From positions 13,224 to 77,223 of the IMG/VR virus record IMGVR_UViG_3300006226_000018: a stretch of 64,000 nucleotides of DNA, one strand, 5' to 3'. The notes beneath the pieces were generated by a model. It searched no databases, was not told the origin of the DNA, and was given only the letters and a program-made list of their open reading frames with translations. A program made the position numbers and the translations under genes. The DNA comes from a virus (taxonomy: Duplodnaviria > Caudoviricetes). Each line of letters opens with the position of its first letter. The first letter of the stretch is position 1. This document shows positions 5,006 through 64,000 of this stretch, piece by piece.

Positions 5006-6307
5006 TTACCAGATGCGGGACCACTGTGTATCAGGATAAACAATGATGCTGTGAGGCGGCGTAATGTTTCCTTCCGCATCACGCAGCGCGTTCCCGATAT
5101 AGTGAATGACCGCAGACGTACCGGTCGGCCAGCCAGTGGGGAAGCCAAGCCAGAACGCATTGTCTGTCTGTACCTCGACATCGCCGATGAACGTAATAGC
5201 TTCACACGGCACTGTAACGAAGTTGCCGGGAGTGAGCTCGTACTCAAGCACGAAGTTTTCCTGCGGTGTTAAGCCGGTGCCAAACGTACCCGCCTGCCAG
5301 TTCGCCAACACGTTAGGATCAATCATGCGCGAGAAGTTCACGAGAATATCATTCCAGCCGTCCGTTGGATTATTAAAGTCACTCCATATTTTTGCAGAAC
5401 CGGGACCGGAATCAACAAAATACGGATGCGCGTTTACCATCAACGGGGCCTTCGACACACCAGTCTGCGTGACAGGTACATCGCCCGGTATCAGGTACAT
5501 ACACTTGACTATCTGACCATCTTTCGACACCGGGGCTCCCTTGAGCTCCAAGTACGAAATGATGTCCGGTGGTGCGCCGGGTATCGGACTCGGTACAGCC
5601 TGCGTCCTAATCATCGCCTGATCGGGATCGACAACAATCTCGTCGCCTATCCACACGCGAAGCGCAAACTCAACCGGGCACATCTCATGAATCATCTGAC
5701 CTGTTACGACACCCGAGGGGGACCGTACCACGACGTTATTCATGACCGGAGATACCACCGCAGGATACGTCAGACGGAACGTAGCGTCGCCTGCCTTAGT
5801 ATCCGGGAAACAATCGGTGAATATCTGATACCCGTCAAACGTCAGTAAGCGCGTCGCCGAATATGCGATGTCCGCTGTCGATGCGTCGTCAATCGGGTTA
5901 GCCCCGGAATACGAGCCTGCAAAGTCGGCATACCACGACGAATACATAACCTTGGAACGGTCCTTGAGCGAAACGTTCACATAAACGTCGCATTTCTGCA
6001 TGTATGCCGGATCAAACACAAACGACTTATCCGGGTCCTGATTGCACAACGCCCGAAGAACAGGCCACATATGCCCAAGGTTCTTGAGGCTGACGGTCCC
6101 CGAAACGTTATCAAACGATTTCTCGTCAATAACATTCGACAACCAGCCGTGCTGACCATGCTGCATGTCTGTGGTGTTCGCGTTGCCGTCGAACGTCTGG
6201 ACACCTTCAAAGAAGATTGGCTGATACGAAACGGGTACTATCATCGGGTCCTGCTGCTTACCCGGATAGATATAGTATTTACTCCATTTGGTCGCCATCT
6301 GTATCAC
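5006..6307 (-). CDS. Probable major tail (tube) protein with C-terminal extension
   Basis: 433 aa, beta-rich; sits between neck genes and chaperones; followed by a terminator as expected for a high-copy protein. Confidence 0.7.
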   Translation of the reverse strand: MIQMATKWSKYYIYPGKQQDPMIVPVSYQPIFFEGVQTFDGNANTTDMQHGQHGWLSNVIDEKSFDNVSGTVSLKNLGHMWPVLRALCNQDPDKSFVFDPAYMQKCDVYVNVSLKDRSKVMYSSWYADFAGSYSGANPIDDASTADIAYSATRLLTFDGYQIFTDCFPDTKAGDATFRLTYPAVVSPVMNNVVVRSPSGVVTGQMIHEMCPVEFALRVWIGDEIVVDPDQAMIRTQAVPSPIPGAPPDIISYLELKGAPVSKDGQIVKCMYLIPGDVPVTQTGVSKAPLMVNAHPYFVDSGPGSAKIWSDFNNPTDGWNDILVNFSRMIDPNVLANWQAGTFGTGLTPQENFVLEYELTPGNFVTVPCEAITFIGDVEVQTDNAFWLGFPTGWPTGTSAVIHYIGNALRDAEGNITPPHSIIVYPDTQWSRIW

Positions 6308-14061: not shown

Positions 14062-15849
14062 TTACGTATAAACCTTATCGAGCACTTGACCAAAGTTTAC
14101 GAACTCCATGCACAAATATCTAATACAGTCCGCAAAATGGAAAAGCGTTTTTCTGCGTATAGTTCCCATGTTATCCCGTGCATACTTCGATAAGTCACTG
14201 GCACAGTATGTGCAGGATTTATCAAAGTATAACTGATTTGCTCCAAGTCGGGATTTTACAGCTTCAATTCCTTCATCCAATTTATTTTCTGCGGGTATGC
14301 AACAAAACCCGGCAACCTCCATATCGGACAGCAGAGTTAAGCCCGATGGGTCACAAATGAAGTAATCCACGTCATACGCATCATGCGCGGTAATTAAGAA
14401 GTCCTGTATATAAATAGACGGAGCTATTCGTTCCACCCTTATTTCATCAAATACATACAGCACGTCCTCAATTTCCTGCACAAAGATCGTTGCGGGACAG
14501 GTATACCCAGCATCTTGAGCCGCATACACGGGTATCGTGGGGCAATAAGCCACCGAAGCTCCTTCACCAGTTTCGCTGTTTTTTCTTTCAGGAAATGAAG
14601 CATAAGCAACATCCATCCCCAATTCTCGTAAAATTTTTTCATAATCCACTATATGCCGATTTTTTGAGAACATCGTGTAAATCAAATCTTTTTTGCCGGG
14701 ACGAGTACATTCATGCTGGGCTATCCATATTTCCAAGTCAAGATTTCGCACCTTAGAATGAATGTCGTCCAACTGGATAACACCGCCATGAGAATATCGA
14801 GCCTTGCCCAAACAACGTGGAGGAACCACTTGCATCATAGGGCACTCCAGACACGTTTCAGGCACATTCATTATCTTCTGGCGGTTCAGCATGTCCGGCA
14901 CCGGGATATACTTTGTACAGCCGTCTGGCATGTGACAGCGTTGAACTGCGTCCCATACGTTCCATTGATATACCGTAAACCCGCGCTCTTTGGATTCATC
15001 AATCATTTTCTGCATTGTGCCGGTGGAATACTTACGTGTGGAAGTCAATCGGGTAGCCTGTTTATAATTTGCGTGTAGCGCACCCATCTTACTGCCGGAA
15101 GTAGCAATATTCATGGCTTCCTGCAATACTTCCCAATTCATTAACTCAACTTCATCTATTGAGATTTTTGTCGAGTGAGACGAATTAACCCCCGCCACCG
15201 TACCAATCAGTATTTTTATCATGCTGCCATTTTTAAACTGACAGCGTTGCATGGTCATCTTCTTTGCGTCCACATGATGTGAGAACAGCGGATGACGTAG
15301 AAATCGAAGAATATAGTCATAACACGCATACGCCTGATCTTTTACCGCTGCAAGATGTGACAGCTCTATACCGGGTTTGAATATAGCGTCCAAAAACAAC
15401 AACGTAGCCATAGCCAATGTCTTGCCGGAAAAACGTGAGCCCAGCAATATACAATCCTGTGTACGCTCGAAGAATTGATCTGCGATGAATTTGAAATGAT
15501 ACGAATGTTCCGGCTGCAAATCATTCGGTTTCAAAGCAAACGGCGGTATTAAACCGTTTCGCTCTAAGCAGATGTGCAGCCAGAACGCCAGCTCAACATC
15601 ATCTTGCGGTGTTTCCCGAGACAATGTTTCGTCCAATCCGGGAGCACCGACAATCGTTACACCGCTGTTAAAATATTCTTCCGCTTGCGCCCGTAAATCA
15701 GTCGCGCTGAGTGGACGTGTAACCTTGGAAGTCTGCAAAGCATCGTCCCAAGGCAATTTTCCACCCTTCCGGCGACTAAGTGGCGTAGTAGTACGTCGGT
15801 CCATTATTCCCGTATGATGATGTTTCATGTTCGATGTCGATTGATTCAT
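14062..15849 (-). CDS. terL: Terminase large subunit
   Basis: Walker A GSRFSGKT, Walker B ISIDE, nuclease acidic motifs QDAGY, CDPSG, HFADCIRY. Confidence 0.92.
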   Translation of the reverse strand: MNQSTSNMKHHHTGIMDRRTTTPLSRRKGGKLPWDDALQTSKVTRPLSATDLRAQAEEYFNSGVTIVGAPGLDETLSRETPQDDVELAFWLHICLERNGLIPPFALKPNDLQPEHSYHFKFIADQFFERTQDCILLGSRFSGKTLAMATLLFLDAIFKPGIELSHLAAVKDQAYACYDYILRFLRHPLFSHHVDAKKMTMQRCQFKNGSMIKILIGTVAGVNSSHSTKISIDEVELMNWEVLQEAMNIATSGSKMGALHANYKQATRLTSTRKYSTGTMQKMIDESKERGFTVYQWNVWDAVQRCHMPDGCTKYIPVPDMLNRQKIMNVPETCLECPMMQVVPPRCLGKARYSHGGVIQLDDIHSKVRNLDLEIWIAQHECTRPGKKDLIYTMFSKNRHIVDYEKILRELGMDVAYASFPERKNSETGEGASVAYCPTIPVYAAQDAGYTCPATIFVQEIEDVLYVFDEIRVERIAPSIYIQDFLITAHDAYDVDYFICDPSGLTLLSDMEVAGFCCIPAENKLDEGIEAVKSRLGANQLYFDKSCTYCASDLSKYARDNMGTIRRKTLFHFADCIRYLCMEFVNFGQVLDKVYT

Positions 15850-23075: not shown

Positions 23076-23117
23076 TTAGTGTCACGCTGTTCCACAGTTA
23101 GTGTCACGCTGTTCCAC
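23076..23117 (+). repeat. Two perfect 20-bp direct repeats at a 22-bp period
   Basis: TTAGTGTCACGCTGTTCCAC at 23076 and 23098. Confidence 0.9.
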
Positions 23118-23816
23118 GCTCCTTTCTATCGCTGCCATGTTTGGTTTCCGCATGGTACGGTGGTTTTTACTACAAGTTACACCCTGCTACACTGGTTCCA
23201 CAGGTAACGTTTCAATCCACGATAAGCTCCCTTGTACACGAATACAGGGGAGTTTATTTTATGTGTGCATACAGGACTGTTAGAACATAAAGAGTAAAAA
23301 AAATTTTTGAAAAATTTTTAGATGAACAATAACGGTTATTCTTTTGAAAAGGTATAGCTAGTACCCCTCTATAGCTGGATTTACTATCTCTCGTTTTGAA
23401 CGCTGCGATGAAAGAGAATCACTCACGCTCCGGTCTGCGCTCTCTGACGGAACACATGGGTACACTTTGTTGACACTCTGTACACACATTGAATGGAATA
23501 GCTATTTTGTTGAATGAAATAGCTTTAATAGCTATGCAATTTCAAATGGTTACTTTAAATTATATTGTTCCGGGTAACTCTTAACTTTAAATTTTAAATC
23601 GGTAAACGGTAAACTACTTTATATTATAAGATAAATGCTCTGAATAGGCTTCATATAAGCAATTGTTTAATAAATACTAATATCATTTGAATGATAATTG
23701 AGTAAACGATAATCTTATTGAATGAGTATCAAATATCATTAAATGCTTGTATTTTGTGTGATTAGGATTATACTACTAATTAGATACACAATACTAATAT
23801 AAAGGAAGTGTTAAAA

Positions 23817-25028
23817 ATGAGTAGTAACAACCTGTACAAACAAGCAATAGCGCAAATAATGTCAACGTTTAACGTATCGCGAGTAACTAACGACGTAACA
23901 AGCGAAACAATAGTTACAAGCGATACAGAACATCAAAAAATCGTATGTTCAATAACTAAAGGATTGATAAAGAGTAAACGATTTAATGACATTGCAGTAT
24001 ATGACTATATTTTTAATTGCAATGTCATAACAGATAATGCAAGTAATTTCAATTGTGAGGATTATATCAATCAAGCACTCTTGCATTATTACGACGCGAT
24101 ACGCATAAACAATAGCGAGTATACCGCATTTACAACGGTAAACTACGATAATAAACGTAAAGGCTATAACAAGCCGTATACCGTAAGCTATGCAAGCCGT
24201 AAGCATGATATAACATTTCACGCGATAGAATCGCTCAATCCGATTCTTTACGCTATAGATATGTTATGGTCAGAAATTGACATAAGGAACAAACAAGCCG
24301 ATAAACAAGCGTATCTTGACGATTTACACGTAACAAGCGAGTATCAAGCCGATATAAACAGTGACGATAAACTCGCTCAAAGAATAGCCATACTCAATAA
24401 TGCGATACTCAATCCGATTGAGCATGTAGAAAATAACGACGATTTAAAACGGCAAAAATTAGCATTATCCATTTATGCTAATTCTAAAGGCATTAACATT
24501 TTATCTACTGCTATTAAAGATAAAGAGGATAAAATGTTTGATAGTTTAACTCTCAATCGTGTTTTTGTTGAAATAGTAAAGGATAGAAATGATTTTTTAA
24601 AGCATATTAAACTATGGAAAACAAGACACGACGAAACAAGCGCAACGGCAACGGTAAACGATAAGAAATATATCGTTAAACAGTTAAAAACGTTGAAAAG
24701 TATCGCAACGGCTTATAAACCTCTTTGGGATATATACCGTAAAGATACAGTTTTAACGGCAAAACAGTATATACTCGATAAAATCGAAAGTTTATCGCGT
24801 ATAAACGACGACGACGACACAACGACGACGACGGCAACGACGACAAACGCAATGATACGTACAACGGCAACGGCAACGGCAACGGTAAACGGCAACGGTA
24901 AAACATTACTTGCAAGCGTTGACATTATCGAAACATGTCGTAAACGTAGTTATACCGCATGGTTATTAGGCAACGATAAAATCAAGTATCAAAACAAGCC
25001 GATTTTAGAATTGCCCAAAGTAGTATAA
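23817..25028 (+). CDS. Orphan ~403 aa protein, AT-rich, in its own transcription unit
   Basis: ORF track 23808-25028; AAGGAAG SD favours ATG 23817; Thr/Ala low-complexity near the C-terminus; followed by a terminator. Confidence 0.75.
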   Translation: MSSNNLYKQAIAQIMSTFNVSRVTNDVTSETIVTSDTEHQKIVCSITKGLIKSKRFNDIAVYDYIFNCNVITDNASNFNCEDYINQALLHYYDAIRINNSEYTAFTTVNYDNKRKGYNKPYTVSYASRKHDITFHAIESLNPILYAIDMLWSEIDIRNKQADKQAYLDDLHVTSEYQADINSDDKLAQRIAILNNAILNPIEHVENNDDLKRQKLALSIYANSKGINILSTAIKDKEDKMFDSLTLNRVFVEIVKDRNDFLKHIKLWKTRHDETSATATVNDKKYIVKQLKTLKSIATAYKPLWDIYRKDTVLTAKQYILDKIESLSRINDDDDTTTTTATTTNAMIRTTATATATVNGNGKTLLASVDIIETCRKRSYTAWLLGNDKIKYQNKPILELPKVV

Positions 25029-25045
25029 ACGCAGTAATAGCAACG

Positions 25046-25080
25046 ATTGAGCGAGTTTTTATAACTCGCTCAATTTTTTT
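25046..25080 (+). terminator. Intrinsic terminator
   Basis: ATTGAGCGAGTT / AACTCGCTCAAT 12-bp stem plus T-run. Confidence 0.88.
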
Positions 25081-25082
25081 TG

Positions 25083-25262
25083 TGTTTTGTGTGATTTTTT
25101 GTCATTCCTATTCTGTATATATAGTGACAAGCGCAACGACGACGGCAACGACGACGGCAACGACGACGGCAACGACGACGGCAAAACAAGCCGATACGAA
25201 TTTTTTAAATTCGTACATGTTTTGTGTGATTTTTTGTCGTTCCTATTCTGTATATATAGTGA
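25083..25262 (+). repeat. 45-bp direct repeat pair (1 mismatch)
   Basis: TGTTTTGTGTGATTTTTTGTC(A/G)TTCCTATTCTGTATATATAGTGA at 25083-25127 and 25218-25262. Confidence 0.92.
25133..25184 (+). repeat. 12-bp tandem repeat x4.3
   Basis: GCAACGACGACG units at 25133, 25145, 25157, 25169. Confidence 0.92.
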
Positions 25263-25334
25263 GTAGTCAATCTGATACGCTTGACTATAGGTTACTACTT
25301 ACTATGTAACATGCGTGAAAGTGAGGGATTGAAC

Positions 25335-25532
25335 ATGGCACGACGTAACAAGCATCAAGCTATTCAATCCCAACTGTACCTTGAAGCAGTTACGCAGAAT
25401 GAGCAGTTACAAGCTGGCTCAAGCAAGCGTAGCAAGCCCGCGAGATTGCAGGCTGATTCAAAGGTCCAGTGGGATAGTAGCTGGCAGCAGTTATTGGACT
25501 TCGCGATTGCAGGCTACGAGAAGCTGACGTAG
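25335..25532 (+). CDS. Hypothetical protein (65 aa)
   Basis: GAGGGA SD before ATG 25335. Confidence 0.5.
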   Translation: MARRNKHQAIQSQLYLEAVTQNEQLQAGSSKRSKPARLQADSKVQWDSSWQQLLDFAIAGYEKLT

Positions 25533-25623
25533 CTGATTGCAGGCTAAAGTAATTGCCTGCTAACAAGCAATAGTTGATTGCAGGCTATTGTTTGTGAGCA
25601 GTTAATCACTTGGAGGTGAAAAC

Positions 25624-25794
25624 ATGTCAACGCACGAGGAATTATTGCAGGCGATAGCTCGCAAACGCGAGCGTCAGGAGCTGCAAGTGTTGCAGGCGCG
25701 GCGTAATGCCGACACGCCGGATTGGGCGAACGATGAGTTCGCCCTGTGGCTGGCGCAGGGTAGCTTCTCCATTGGCGCAACACGGATAGCATAG
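25624..25794 (+). CDS. Hypothetical protein (56 aa) MSTHEELLQAIARKR...
   Basis: GGAGGTG SD; below the ORF-track cutoff. Confidence 0.6.
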   Translation: MSTHEELLQAIARKRERQELQVLQARRNADTPDWANDEFALWLAQGSFSIGATRIA

Positions 25795-25809
25795 CAGGGA
25801 GGGATAGCA

Positions 25810-25989
25810 ATGTTGCAGGCGCAGGTAATACAAGCCACGTCCGACGACGGCGCAGGAATGAGCGAGGCCGAATACAGGCAGTGGCGTATCAAAACACGGC
25901 AAGCAAGCAAATTGCTGGACGAGCTTGACAGCATCGTTCGGCAGCTCACACGGCGCGAGCCATTGCAGCAGGTCATCGGCAAACGGTAG
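25810..25989 (+). CDS. Hypothetical protein (59 aa)
   Basis: GGAGGG SD; below the cutoff. Confidence 0.5.
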   Translation: MLQAQVIQATSDDGAGMSEAEYRQWRIKTRQASKLLDELDSIVRQLTRREPLQQVIGKR

Positions 25990-25995
25990 CAGGCC

Positions 25996-26583
25996 ATGAT
26001 AGCTACCGTGCAGGCCGAGGGATTGCTGGTCACTACCGGCTATACGCCGATTGCAGGCCAGTACGAAGAATATGTTGACGAGCGCGGACATACTCGTCGG
26101 CGTAAAACAGACGCGAGTGACGCGCAGAGAGGGGATAGCAAAATGACAGCAACGCAGGCAATGTTGGAGGGTAACAACGTCGTAGCAGTACAGAGCCACT
26201 ATCGCAGGAAGAAAGGCTCGAAAGCGGATGCGAGCGCGGCGTTGCAGGCCGTCACGCCGAACGTGGGCACGATTGCCGACTTGGAGAGGCAGCTCGCGGC
26301 GTTGCAGGCGCAATATGCCGTAGCCAAGCAGCAGGAAGCGGACAGCGCAAAAGCGGCAGCGGCGGCGAAAGCGGCAGAGCGCGAACGCGCTGAAAAGGAG
26401 CGCGAATATTGGAAATATTTCGCCTTCACCGAGATAGCAGGTGAGGCGCAGACGTTGCGGGTCTACGACCTCGGACACAAGAAGGTCGTGCAGGGCTTGA
26501 AGAATGGCAAGGTCCTGTGGGCGTTGCACAGCGACCGCTTGAATGACGCGCAGAAAAGCGCGTTGCTGGACGCAATAGCGTAA
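25996..26583 (+). CDS. Hypothetical Ala-rich coiled-coil protein
   Basis: ORF track; true start may be the later MTATQ with GAGGGG SD. Confidence 0.55.
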   Translation: MIATVQAEGLLVTTGYTPIAGQYEEYVDERGHTRRRKTDASDAQRGDSKMTATQAMLEGNNVVAVQSHYRRKKGSKADASAALQAVTPNVGTIADLERQLAALQAQYAVAKQQEADSAKAAAAAKAAERERAEKEREYWKYFAFTEIAGEAQTLRVYDLGHKKVVQGLKNGKVLWALHSDRLNDAQKSALLDAIA

Positions 26584-26953
26584 CGCGAACACGCACATTG
26601 CAGGGCATACAGCATCTGGACGCTGGCGGCATTGCCGCGAAACCAGTAATTGCCCGATGAGTAAACTTGCAACGAGCAGGCTCAATCAAGCAACACACAA
26701 AGCGATTGGGCTTGCTAATGCAGGCTTACGCGATTGCTTGCAAATAACTTGGTGAAACGAGGTGAAAGCAATGCCCGATTGCAGGTATTGCAGGGAAAAC
26801 CAGAGCAAAAGCTGGTGCTGCGAGTTGCCGTGCGGCTACAGCGAGTGTTCGTTGGCCGCACACTTGCGGCACGGGTTCACAGAATCCGAGTGGCGGCAGA
26901 TATTCATGCTGCCAGAGCAGGCGGAGCAGGCGTAGCTGATTGTTGGTTGGATT

Positions 26954-27398
26954 TTTCAAACTTGGGATTGCAGACGGGGACGGGAGCTACCCGTACCCCT
27001 AAATACTACTGGAGGTGTTGTAGATGATTCAGAACAAGGTGTTGCCCATGCAGTGCAGGATGACGGAGAGCGTCGTAAGCTGCGACAAATGCGCGATCAA
27101 GATGTGGCTGACGGCGGCGTTGGGCGCAGAGCCCGAAAGCTGGACCCCGGAAGCCATTGCCATGCTGCCGTCGCGCCGGGACAGGCACAGGGCTCGGAAA
27201 TATATCAACAATTGCGGGGAGCAGCGGGTGTATAACTCCGAATTGCACAGGAAGCACGTAGCGGCGCAGGCGGCGCGGCGGGCGGCGTAATAGGAATTTT
27301 CAAACTTGGGTGCGGGTGCTGAAATGGGAGCTACCCGTACCCTTGATTGGAAATTTCAAACTTCCAGTAACAGGCGCAAATGGGAGCTACCCGTACCC
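26954..27398 (+). repeat. Bipartite element TTTCAAACTT-N18-GGGAGCTACCCGTACCC x3
   Basis: Units at 26954-26998, 27298-27342, 27354-27398; identical arms, variable 18-nt spacer. Confidence 0.9.
27024..27290 (+). CDS. Hypothetical Cys-containing protein
   Basis: GGAGGTG SD, 88 aa. Confidence 0.6.
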   Translation: MIQNKVLPMQCRMTESVVSCDKCAIKMWLTAALGAEPESWTPEAIAMLPSRRDRHRARKYINNCGEQRVYNSELHRKHVAAQAARRAA

Positions 27399-27462
27399 TT
27401 GTTTGCGCTTGTTATTGCAGGTTTGATTAGCGACCTGACACCAATACTTGGAGGTTACTGAA

Positions 27463-47566: not shown

Positions 47567-47814
47567 ACGAAATTTATCAGCATATACAAGAAGCGACACA
47601 GACTATCATGAACACGATTGCGCTTGGTACACCACGCCATGTATCAGATAAACAAATCCTTCGTCTGTGTCACACTATTCTTACGCTTATCAAGGATTGC
47701 GAACAACTATGCAAATGTTGTAGCGACCATGACCAGCGTTCGATAATTACCTTGGGTGCTGATTTTTGTCCGTGGTGCGGTCATAGAATACGAAAGGAGG
47801 GGACGACCAATTAA
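47563..47814 (+). CDS. Hypothetical protein with CPWC
   Basis: GGAGGGG SD, TTG start. Confidence 0.55.
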   Translation: MNEIYQHIQEATQTIMNTIALGTPRHVSDKQILRLCHTILTLIKDCEQLCKCCSDHDQRSIITLGADFCPWCGHRIRKEGTTN

Positions 47815-48367
47815 GATAATCAAAAACTACTCCGGTATCAATCCTTACGGAGTGGATTATAAATATTCAACAATATACGCAGACCCTCCTTGGTACGAAA
47901 AAGGCGGGGGCAAAATAAAACGTGGCGCGGACCGTCATTATCCATTGATGAAAACCGACGACATCGCCGCCATCGCTGTGCAGAAGTTAGTTGATCCTGT
48001 CGGTTGTCATCTGTATTTATGGGCAACCAACAACTTTCTGCAAGATGCTTTGTGGGTGATGCACGAATGGGGTTTCACTTACAAAACCATGATAACTTGG
48101 ACAAAAAATGCAATGGGCCTTGGTCAGTATTTCCGGGGCATTACTGAACATTGCTTATTCGGAACATATAAAACGCTGCCATATAAAACAGACAAGGAAA
48201 CCGGCAAACGCTGTCAGGGCGTGACAGGTTTCTTTGAACCCAAACAGCATCACAGCAGGAAACCGGATACCATGCGGAGGATGATTGAAAAGGTATCCTA
48301 TGCGCCGCGCATCGAATTATTTGCGCGGGAAAAATTTGATGGATGGGACATACTCGACTCACACTAA
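47756..48367 (+). CDS. MT-A70 family SAM-dependent (probably adenine) methyltransferase
   Basis: IYADPPW, HYPLM, LYLWAT, WGF.YKT.ITW.K, FRGITEHCLFG, HSRKP, RIELFAR; start possibly ATT at 47810. Confidence 0.92.
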   Translation: MLIFVRGAVIEYERRGRPIKIIKNYSGINPYGVDYKYSTIYADPPWYEKGGGKIKRGADRHYPLMKTDDIAAIAVQKLVDPVGCHLYLWATNNFLQDALWVMHEWGFTYKTMITWTKNAMGLGQYFRGITEHCLFGTYKTLPYKTDKETGKRCQGVTGFFEPKQHHSRKPDTMRRMIEKVSYAPRIELFAREKFDGWDILDSH

Positions 48368-61801: not shown

Positions 61802-63222
61802 ATGCCGGTAAATACAGATTTTCCTTTTGCACCCCCCCCCCCCTTGAGGGGACGGGACCAACAACTCACTCAATCACAGCGGGTTACGCCGCTACTAACT
61901 CCGGCACAACATTATTCTCCGTATCTGGTGGCTTACTACCAATAACAATAACTAAAATCAGTGGCAACGCTTCATTAACTTGGGATACTACAAACAACCG
62001 AATAGCTATTGCAGCAGGATTAGCAGCAGGATCATACCCGGTTGTATTACGCGCAACAGATATTGTTGGACAAACATTAGACAAAACATGGACCTTAACC
62101 GTAAATCCTGCTCTTGCATGGGGTGGGCCAACAACTCACTCAATCACAGCAGGTTATGCCGCAACTAACTCCGGTACAACTCAATTTTCAGTATCCGGTG
62201 GAACAACCCCCGTAACCATCACAAAAGTTAGCGGTAACGCATCTTTAACTTGGGACAATACAAACAGACGCATAAACATCGCAGCAGGCTTGGCAATGGG
62301 CTCCTACCCCGTTGTTTTACGTGCCACCGATGCTACCGGAAGAACACTTGATAGAACATGGACTTTAACTGTCGCCACCGGAACACCTGTTGGAACAGTC
62401 TTTAACTTCGATTATACAGGTGCTGTACAATCCCGAACACTTCCACCGGGTAAATATCAGTTTGAAGTTTGGGGAGCTTCAATGGCACAAGATGGTCGAT
62501 TTAATTTTGCAAAAGGTGGATATGCACGAGGTACGATAACTTTAACTACATCACGCACATTTTATATTTTTGTTGGACAAGTTGGTGCAAGACGAAATAG
62601 TACAGGCAGTTGGAATGGTGGAGGAAATTCAGGACAGCCATACAGTGAGGATGGCGGCGGTGGCACAGATATTAGATTAGTAAATGCAGCATGGAATAAT
62701 GCAAATAGTTTACGTTCACGTATTTTAGTTGCTGGTGCTGCAGGTGGTTTTGGTCAAACAGGTGCTGGACATGGAGGCGGCTTAGAAGGAACAAGAGGTA
62801 ATAATACTTCACTATGGTCTAGTGCTTTAGGCGGCTATGGTGGTACACAAACAGCAGGTGGTGCTGGTAATAGTGGGGGGCAAGCTGGCAGTTTTGGTAT
62901 TGGTGGTGGAACTCCGGGAGCAAGACGTGGTTCTGGAGCTGGTGGATATTACGGTGGTGGGGCAGGTGTTGGAAGTAGTGGGGGAGTAGCTTATCAATGT
63001 GGTGGCGGTGGTTCTGGATTCTGTTCAGGTCATTCAGGATGTCGTGCAGTTACTTCTGAAACGAGTGGAACACATGTATCCCACGCAAATCACTATAGCG
63101 GCTTAATATTTACTGCAACGGCACTAATCGCTGGTAATGCTTCTATGCCTAATCCAAGAGGTTCAGGTAATATAACAGGTAATCCCGGTAATGGATACGC
63201 ACGAATTACATCGGTAGCTTAA
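61802..63222 (+). CDS. Ig-Ig-Gly-rich putative adhesin/receptor-binding protein, out of frame at a C12 tract (about 473 aa if restored)
   Basis: ATG 61802 frame stops at 61945; the -1 frame from 61843 encodes two 90-aa Ig-like repeats continuous with the ORF-track 62290-63222 Gly-rich domain (FDYTG...GKYQFEVWGA...GGGGTDIRL...RILVAG). Confidence 0.8.
61832..61843 (+). repeat. C12 homopolymer tract
   Basis: Codons 11-14 of the adhesin gene. Confidence 0.95.
61858..62376 (+). repeat. 270-bp period internal duplication (two Ig-like domains)
   Basis: CCAACAACTCACTCAATCACAGC identical at 61858 and 62128; protein repeats align throughout. Confidence 0.9.
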
Positions 63223-63236
63223 AAGGAGGAAATAAA

Positions 63237-63587
63237 ATGCGTTATAAAATGTGGGATAAACAAGAGCCAATTTACATGATGGGACCCGATGAAAACGGAA
63301 AAGTCATGTATACCGCCGAAGAATACATCACCACAAAAGCACCGTGGGTAAATATCCCCGGTGTAAAAGTAATCATCAGCGGACTGACCATCAACGGCGT
63401 TATCTTCATGGAATTTGAACAAGCAGTGGCCGGTTACGTTGCACAAGGATTAGTAATTACCGACAACATGACCGACCGGGAGATTCTTGATGCTATTGAA
63501 GCGTTTGAAGATAATCCTCCCGTCAAACCAACGCCGGAAGAACGTATGGCAGCCGCGCTGGAATTTGCCAATTTACTGAACATGTAA
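63237..63587 (+). CDS. Tail-fibre-associated protein
   Basis: AAGGAGG SD; C-terminal PTPEERMAAALEF typical of genes preceding XkdX. Confidence 0.65.
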   Translation: MRYKMWDKQEPIYMMGPDENGKVMYTAEEYITTKAPWVNIPGVKVIISGLTINGVIFMEFEQAVAGYVAQGLVITDNMTDREILDAIEAFEDNPPVKPTPEERMAAALEFANLLNM

Positions 63588-63602
63588 GGAGGTTAAAATG
63601 TC

Positions 63603-63746
63603 ATGACATTTGAAATTATCAAGTCAAATTTTGACAAAGGCTTATGGACCGCACAAATGGTTGCTGTGGCAGTAACCAAGAACATCATCACTCTCGAACA
63701 ATTCAGGGAAATCACCGGCCAAGCCTACTCAGACATAATCAAATAA
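63603..63746 (+). CDS. XkdX family protein (47 aa)
   Basis: MTFEIIKSNFDKGLWT...V.K..IT.EQFREITG; AAGGAGG SD; not in the ORF track. Confidence 0.8.
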   Translation: MTFEIIKSNFDKGLWTAQMVAVAVTKNIITLEQFREITGQAYSDIIK

Positions 63747-63748
63747 CG

Positions 63749-63775
63749 AAAAGCCCCCCAAATAGGGGGGCTATC
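63749..63775. terminator. Hairpin terminator
   Basis: AGCCCCCC-AAATA-GGGGGGCT; A-run on the left gives a T-run on the minus strand. Confidence 0.7.
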
Positions 63776-63866
63776 TTACTTAACATTTCAATTACATACA
63801 CTTCATATGATAAGATAATCGAACTATGAACACTAAACTAAAAAATATTATATTGAAAATACTATT

Positions 63867-64000
63867 ATGCCCATAACCACAGATTGGTGTGTAGCCAACG
63901 GTAATCCACCAACAATTACACCCCCCCCCCCCATCATCTGCCGGAAGGAAACGCTACCCACAACACACGAAAACAACCCTTTCCACTTATTGCTCCCGTC
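63867..64000 (+). CDS. Partial candidate gene MPITTDW...PPPP with a C12 tract at 63921-63932
   Basis: N-terminus resembles the two MPVN genes; runs off the window; weak SD. Confidence 0.35.
   Translation, partial: MPITTDWCVANGNPPTITPPPPIICRKETLPTTHENNPFHLLLP

Follow-up and report, generated by a model that had tools for sequence, protein, structure and literature searches.

The RegB endoribonuclease of phage T4 acts on GGAG in early mRNAs, and the sponge RNAs CsrB and RsmZ carry about 18-22 GGA motifs. Dam sites (GATC) form clusters at E. coli oriC and P1 pac. Cryptic simplicity, or slippage-derived low-complexity DNA, is said to have been described by Tautz and colleagues. The Chi sites of phages LLS (E. 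coli, GCTGGTGG) and MD8 (Pseudomonas, GCTGGCGC) are terminally clustered in one orientation (Genome Res 2025, PMC12315714), with 20 of the 23 LLS sites pointing the same way and a ratio of 32:0 in MD8 (PMC12315714). The locus described here is a dense array of the pentamer CAAGC in a 64,000-nucleotide stretch of DNA (the window), which covers bases 13224-77223 of the single 77,223-bp contig IMGVR_UViG_3300006226_000018 of an uncultured tailed phage. Positions are those of the window unless genome bases are named.

Like the Chi sites of LLS and MD8, CAAGC is an exact short word, over-represented in one part of the genome with near-uniform orientation, and it runs across genes regardless of coding. 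Those Chi sites are 8-mers at about one per 1-2 kb over some 10 kb beside a known end, with a known enzyme and host, whereas CAAGC has five letters (with its context up to about 9) and reaches 13 copies per kb across 1.7 kb, or about one site per 80 nt. The likeness to GGAG in T4 would lie in a short exact RNA word on a temporal class of transcripts, through which a single factor can act on all of them, and polarity is automatic since the signal exists only in RNA. GGAG occurs mainly in Shine-Dalgarno regions, about once per gene, whereas CAAGC forms a dense array through coding sequence, and no RegB-like gene was recognised here. Like CsrB and RsmZ, this locus has some 20 copies of a word of 5-7 nt, irregularly spaced along a single RNA strand. 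In those RNAs, which are dedicated non-coding molecules a few hundred nt long, the motifs occupy hairpin loops, whereas most CAAGC copies fall within mRNAs across 1.7 kb, the structural signal is weak and no binder was recognised. Dam clusters, too, are places near control DNA where a short, exact, methylatable word is locally in excess; they span 160-250 bp of non-coding or pac DNA, and the CAAGC array spans 1.7 kb of genes. Cryptic simplicity resembles the locus in its local word excess, tandem arrays, live copy-number polymorphism and coding as well as non-coding copies, but slippage words normally form periodic arrays with variant units, as ACGAC and CAACG do here, whereas CAAGC is dispersed and exact, with no halo of decayed copies.

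CAAGC is strongly enriched and polar. The earlier note had given 22 plus-strand copies in about 1.7 kb where roughly 2 were expected, and the recount is exactly 22 over 23841-25568 (1728 bp) against 2.08 +/- 1.42 in dinucleotide shuffles (maximum 8 in 2000). The lone minus-strand copy is at 25279. Elsewhere the genome carries about 1.06 plus and 0.83 minus copies per kb, so the motif is not equally dense genome-wide, and with the cluster removed the window-wide count equals the shuffle expectation. When all 1024 pentamers are ranked, CAAGC is among the strongest local clusters of the genome. The extended word AACAAGC occurs 11 times in the zone, against 6 plus and 4 minus copies in the other 75 kb. 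The left edge is sharp, since the spacer directly upstream (23280-23816, 537 bp), which is equally AT-rich, has no copy at all. Other words are also asymmetric between the strands over 23780-25620, namely GACG (24 vs 0 for CGTC), AACG (36 vs 6 for CGTT) and AAGC (28 vs 5 for GCTT).

The enrichment is independent of reading frame. The open reading frame (ORF) of the orphan gene P0001 has 13 copies, compared with 6.05 +/- 1.39 in synonymous-codon shuffles that keep the protein (0 of 5000 reach 13), 4.2 on resampling with the general codon usage of the phage and 1.67 in codon-order shuffles. These copies are distributed over codon phases 0, 1 and 2 as 5, 6 and 2, with the corresponding peptides CAA-GCN (Gln-Ala), NCA-AGC (Thr/Ala-Ser) and AAC-AAG-CCG (Asn-Lys-Pro). 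A 65-aa gene further downstream has 6 copies against 2.99 in synonymous-codon shuffles (p = 0.025), and the interval 25029-25568 has 9 against 0.8 in dinucleotide shuffles; three copies are non-coding. The proposal of a signal at DNA level is borne out in so far as the signal lies in the nucleic acid and not in the protein, as shown by three codon phases, two genes, non-coding DNA and an excess that does not vanish under codon-preserving shuffles.

A base-rate control used 166 other viral loci, many of them picked for AACAAGC triplets. Counts of 15-25 CAAGC per 1.7 kb with strong polarity do occur there, and in this respect the present cluster is like the peptide-repeat clusters of the control phage contigs. 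Seven of the densest control loci were inspected; five are wholly in a single codon phase, encoding Gln-Ala-rich or Gly-Ser-Ser-Gly-repeat proteins, and two (L108 and L103) are mixed. Frame independence, which is rare among the control clusters, distinguishes the present one. A codon word of a repeated peptide, in one phase of one gene, was rejected because of the mixed phases in P0001, the three phases in the 65-aa gene and the non-coding copies. The CAAGC excess is not explained by codon usage, repeated peptides or chance.

The core is exact. Aligned sites show an extended preference, W-A-A-CAAGC-S, with information only at positions -3 to -1 (W, A, A) and +5 (S), and 8 of the 22 sites have no A at -1. 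Of the 25 occurrences of CAAG, 22 continue with C, and of the 27 of AAGC, 22 have a C in front. The 15 one-letter variants of CAAGC total 24 against 26 expected. Words born of slippage in this region do have a dominant variant, as with ACGAC (ACGGC) and CGACG (CAACG). Where the flanks match longer modules, the core is either perfect or unrelated, and past about 3 nt the flanks of about half of the sites are unrelated. The sites have no helical or codon periodicity (all p > 0.26 for helical phasing). Nothing relevant emerged from the literature on whether CAAGC is already known as a recognition sequence.

The zone coincides with three units, each headed by the 12-mer TTTTGTGTGATT, which occurs only three times in the 77-kb genome (window 23752, 25085 and 25220), once per unit head (Table 1). 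The unit heads are putative promoters. P0001 heads the row. Its codon-position composition and periodicity are of the normal coding type, but it has no Pfam or PHROG match, and no homologue was found in 5.8 billion proteins, nor by full HMMER in 1.84 billion representatives. The Atlas model has a pLDDT of 0.38, with no predicted fold. In the short non-coding unit that follows, 25128-25192 has no T at all. The 65-aa gene has a normal GC content, and the GATTGCAGGCT words of the next zone begin inside it.

Table 1. Position of the word arrays and of the genes and elements around them in the window
Feature	Position	Strand	Description
Unit-head element 1	23747..23774	+	12-mer TTTTGTGTGATT at 23752-23763, then TATACT; upstream of P0001
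P0001, 403-aa orphan gene	23817..25028	+	GC 0.35; 13 sites in all three phases
CAAGC zone	23841..25568	+	exact pentamer; 22 plus copies, 1 minus
Low-complexity tandem arrays in P0001 3' part	24804..24904	+	(ACG)n and (CAACGG)6; D/T/A runs
Terminator-like hairpin	25045..25075	+	13 pairs plus T run; presumably ends the P0001 unit
45-bp repeat copy 1 (unit-head element 2)	25083..25127	+	contains TTTTGTGTGATT
Short non-coding unit	25128..25217	+	CAAGC, (GCAACGACGACG)4.3, AACAAGC, AT hairpin
45-bp repeat copy 2 (unit-head element 3)	25218..25262	+	98% identical to copy 1
65-aa orphan gene	25335..25532	+	6 CAAGC in three phases within 90 nt
TTGCAGGC zone	25446..27430	+	core CAGGC, consensus R-T-T-G-CAGGC
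MT-A70-family methyltransferase	47756..48367	+	203 aa, DPPW motif intact

Taken together, the CAAGC cluster is probably, though by no means securely, a selected oriented signal of some kind. CAAGC, in the context given above, would be a short exact recognition word arrayed in one direction under selection, and the array would mark the first rightward, presumably immediate-early, transcription units. Copies may have been seeded and multiplied in part when 9-14-nt modules were duplicated locally within an AT-rich island of orphan genes that is prone to slippage, with selection keeping the core exact after duplication. The exact core, the missing halo and the unrelated flanks of half of the sites argue for selection, as do the spread to a second gene of normal GC and to non-coding DNA, the sharp left edge and a sister zone of the same polarity.

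The array runs parallel to transcription, starts after the head of the first unit, and is blind to frame and unphased, all of which points to a directional reader of one strand. As a whole statement, a selected signal with a directional single-strand reader has a little less than an even chance. The likeliest reader would act on early RNA, since polarity then needs no extra explanation; it may be a sequence-specific RNA-binding protein, an endoribonuclease or an RNA-modifying enzyme, and would treat early transcripts as one class, as T4 RegB does with GGAG. On its own, this RNA-level version is rather unlikely. The second-likeliest reader would be a DNA-tracking enzyme, for example a Chi-recognising helicase-nuclease, and a double-strand binding array would come third.

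The adjacent zone carries a related word. The strongest pentamer cluster of the genome lies just downstream of the CAAGC zone (GCAGG, 30 copies in 1.7 kb), and CAGGC differs from CAAGC by one transition. Between 23817-25568 (zone 1) and 25569-27430 (zone 2), CAAGC falls from 22 copies to 5 and CAGGC rises from 3 to 18. CACGC and CATGC, each with 1 copy in zone 1 and 3 in zone 2, are at background in both, so only purines occur in excess at that position. The A form prevails where the DNA is AT-rich, and the G form takes over in the GC-rich half. Over 23817-27430 (3.6 kb), CARGC has 48 plus and 8 minus copies, compared with 1.7 per kb per strand elsewhere. These counts hint that the two zones are one purine-tolerant signal or two related ones. 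It is improbable, though conceivable, that the roughly 50 co-oriented CARGC words at 23.8-27.4 kb are a class tag in early transcripts, with an RNA reader that would time the shut-off of early genes. Such a reader could possibly be the MT-A70 protein of the phage, as a writer of N6-methyladenine (m6A) in mRNA, or a RegB-like nuclease.

In predicted RNA, the sites are somewhat more accessible than GC-matched pentamers, with a mean unpaired probability of 0.51 compared with 0.39 (p = 0.004). For the short non-coding unit, the predicted fold is not significant (z = -0.58). At the right edge of the zone (25530-25600), ACAAGCAATAG and CTATTGTTTGT can form an 11-pair hairpin with TTGATTGCAGG in the loop, and the CAAGC at 25564 lies in the stem of that hairpin with an unpaired probability of 0.07.

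Several points weigh against a selected word read on early RNA. The difference in accessibility is partly trivial, since the complement of CAAGC is absent on the same strand, and selection for unstructured RNA was rejected because the fold energies are no weaker than those of shuffles. The relation between CAAGC and CAGGC has modest statistical weight (p of about 0.02-0.06 by our own estimate). The early proteins scanned, which are most ORFs of at least 100 aa at 25-35 kb plus three small ones, have no Pfam or PHROG function that would suggest a reader. No diverged relative was found in which conservation of the word could be set against synonymous drift. Promoters and transcript ends are presumed throughout, and a generic sigma-70 scan did not call the unit heads. 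The zone ends at 25568, probably inside a single transcript, which is not predicted for a tag on an RNA class. Finally, nearly half of the sites lie in shared modules within a slippage-prone region, so copy-and-paste may explain much of the count and also the missing halo.

This last point leads to the strongest rival explanation, a substantial possibility that nonetheless falls clearly short of even, in which the zone is a young AT-rich island built by slippage and frame-blind micro-duplication of a few 9-14-nt modules, with CAAGC as their common word and no reader. Exact stretches of 12-14 nt are shared with another site by 10 of the 22 sites, where a match of at least 12 nt is expected by chance at about 1.3% per site. 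The shared modules are ACGACGTAACAAGC and CAAAACAAGCCGAT (3 copies each) and ACAAGCGCAACG and AACAAGCAATAG (2 copies each). They connect P0001 with the downstream units; they have no wider homology around them, which counts against this rival. Fourteen of the sites group into six local doublets or clusters with spacings of 4-23 nt, and local pairs at 9-12 bp occur. P0001 has tandem arrays of a related vocabulary both within it and next to it, and those in the gene use the same words as the intergenic array.

Slippage is active at this locus. An environmental variant (L002, ~1965) that is 99.6% identical has one unit fewer than the 4.3 copies of the 12-bp repeat GCAACGACGACG (window 25133-25184), which shows that the array is length-variable in nature; it differs by just one further base (25342, G to T). 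Polarity would be automatic under direct duplication, and the strict orphan status of P0001 and its lack of a predicted fold fit a young, fast-evolving sequence. Module copying in slippage-prone DNA has clearly spread the copies at least in part, and this is not exclusive of selection. A neutral by-product is harder to reconcile with the absence of decayed copies when about half of the sites have unrelated flanks, with the occurrence of CAAGC in the compositionally normal second gene and in non-coding DNA, and with the transition variant of the word, in the same polarity, in the adjacent zone. The copies are also dispersed rather than head-to-tail. Tandem Repeats Finder reports a single CAAGC-containing array, which is weak (9 nt, 3.3 copies). 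The tandem or slippage repeat class was rejected for CAAGC itself, which is not head-to-tail and has no excess of one-off variants; ACGAC and CAACG do fit that class.

A Chi-like or DNA-tracking signal is unlikely. An end-processing helicase-nuclease of the host would read the word, either as GCTTG on the minus or as CAAGC on the plus strand, and on meeting a dense one-orientation cluster next to a physical DNA end or a rolling-circle tail it would cease to degrade the DNA and turn to recombination. Five-letter Chi sites exist, such as AGCGG in Bacillus subtilis. The word here is exact, oriented and locally confined (22:1, no halo, 1.7 kb), as in the Chi clusters of LLS and MD8, although at about ten times the density of known phage Chi clusters. 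The zone adjoins the 1.3-kb non-coding junction of the divergent gene arms, and neither a recombination module nor an anti-RecBCD gene was recognised among the proteins scanned, both of which favor a signal of this kind. However, three independent assemblies (74,937, 74,947 and 77,223 bp) run unbroken through the CAAGC region and break instead near homopolymers, which are a run of 28 G at genome bases 110-137, upstream of the window and next to the contig start, and C12 tracts toward the window end (61802-63932). The contig lacks terminal repeats. A word of five letters is in any case found throughout the genome, in either orientation, at about one copy per kb.

Sites for a double-strand DNA-binding protein at the divergence point, similar to iterons or a centromere and serving in origin function, partition or a nucleoprotein structure, are very improbable. 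The zone lies at the cumulative GC-skew minimum beside AT-rich DNA, but the switch in gene orientation, with which this minimum coincides, accounts for it just as well. The copies are direct repeats, some in pairs at 9-12 bp as noted above, although the sites lack helical phasing, the conserved part is just 5-9 bp with no dyad, and they are spread over 1.7 kb across genes instead of 100-300 bp. No DnaA-box cluster was found, and no initiator or ParB was recognisable among the proteins scanned. An iteron-type origin, with 17-22-bp repeats in helical phase over a few hundred bp, was rejected on the 5-9 conserved bp, the lack of a 9-12-bp period and the 1.7-kb spread.

The MT-A70 protein had been proposed in the earlier note as the enzyme for which the array is the target. 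In this rival, CAAGC would carry strand-specific m6A in DNA, gating replication or packaging, or would be methylated in early RNA; in either form it stands at the bottom of the probabilities, level with the double-strand array. The gene is intact, and methyltransferases typically target short exact words. The nearest relatives of known structure are ciliate writers of 6mA in DNA and the RNA writer METTL3. The one prophage MT-A70 enzyme found in the literature needs a partner protein, targets 16S rRNA and has only weak DNA activity (PMC10810198). Polarity would follow from an RNA target, and around half of the sites read WAACA, in keeping with the DRACH context that eukaryotic MT-A70 enzymes prefer. 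What never varies, however, is CAAGC and not the AAC of DRACH, and more than a third of the sites lack the A at -1. The gene lies 22 kb from the zone in a later module, and a methyltransferase alone leaves the clustering of sites unexplained.

CAAGC does not fit the analogy with the Dam clusters of oriC and P1 pac. GATC is palindromic, and replication therefore leaves hemimethylated sites for SeqA or the pacase to sense, whereas CAAGC/GCTTG has adenine on one strand only; GCTTG has none, there is no hemimethylated state, and the logic of Dam and SeqA is inapplicable. No origin or pac feature was found in the zone, which has no phasing and no DnaA-box cluster, and the terminase is about 8 kb away with other genes between. 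From the suggestion of a dense, oriented array of protein or methylation target sites, the word-specific and oriented array, which is in line with target sites, is kept, and the link to the methylase is left without support.

The remaining candidates were rejected. Avoidance of Type III restriction is contradicted by 64 opposite-orientation copies in the genome, and a promoter scan finds no antisense promoters from GCTTGTTW in the zone. A sigma-28-like GCCGATAA is present in four sites, but by eye without TAAA at the required spacing. Pairing of the GCTTG at 25279, in the leader of the next unit, with the site at 24306 is a 10-nt match that is taken as chance (p of about 0.2, an estimate). The 65-aa gene is not a diverged duplicate of the P0001 5' end, as local alignment yields only the 14-mer.

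The CAAGC stretch sits at the divergence point of two gene arms, in an AT-rich island (GC about 0.35, compared with about 0.46 overall). Virion genes, including those for the portal, large terminase and prohead protease, run leftward up to about 22.5 kb. The rightward row starts at 23.8 kb and consists mostly of orphan genes, together with a helicase, the MT-A70 methyltransferase and a GATase/amidoligase operon. The junction between the arms contains a perfect 22-bp tandem duplication at 23076-23117 (TTAGTGTCACGCTGTTCCACAG, two copies), with a third GTTCCAC at 23195; the GTTCCAC repeats at 23089-23201 lie outside the CAAGC zone. The 200 nt of the junction at 23000-23199 fold better than shuffles (z = -2.9). 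Rfam and tRNA scans gave no matches.

The phage has no match among GenBank phages. The best match of its terminase is 37% identical in IMG/VR and 63% identical anywhere, the latter on a 3-kb contig; terminase relatives in general are at most 63% identical and lie on short contigs, or differ in gene order. Host identification was attempted and no host was assigned, the only genomic relative being a 37%-identical terminase in a Pseudomonadota metagenome-assembled genome. Besides this genome, P0001 is carried only by identical or near-identical contigs. No homologue was found for an 857-aa neighbour protein, a search with a 231-aa protein gave nothing, and pattern searches with the unit-head element and a downstream bipartite element returned only unrelated DNA.

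The large terminase (14062-15849) has 595 aa and no intein. Many of its closest homologues (P0004, P0005, P0007, P0012 and P0019-P0021) are 740-950 aa long, with intein or homing-endonuclease domains (Hom_end, Hom_end_hint and Intein_splicing). A distant relative (L018, terminase 29% identical) has a perfect hexamer tandem array, GGTCTN, with 21 copies at 6113-6237, upstream of its terminase.

If the CAAGC word is read, it would be a compact natural signal overlaid on coding sequence in three frames, at about one site per 80 nt, in an array that is denser and shorter-worded than the phage Chi clusters described so far. The array coincides precisely with the first early units in a phage lineage that has no known relatives, and its reader, if identified, could reveal a new phage way of handling early transcripts as a class or a new control word for a host nuclease. 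If the words are a tag for a transcript class, they would amount to a dense, frame-independent RNA code over phage coding sequence. If they are only a by-product of duplication, the locus would be a clean case of orphan early genes and neighbouring non-coding RNAs assembled from the same short modules.

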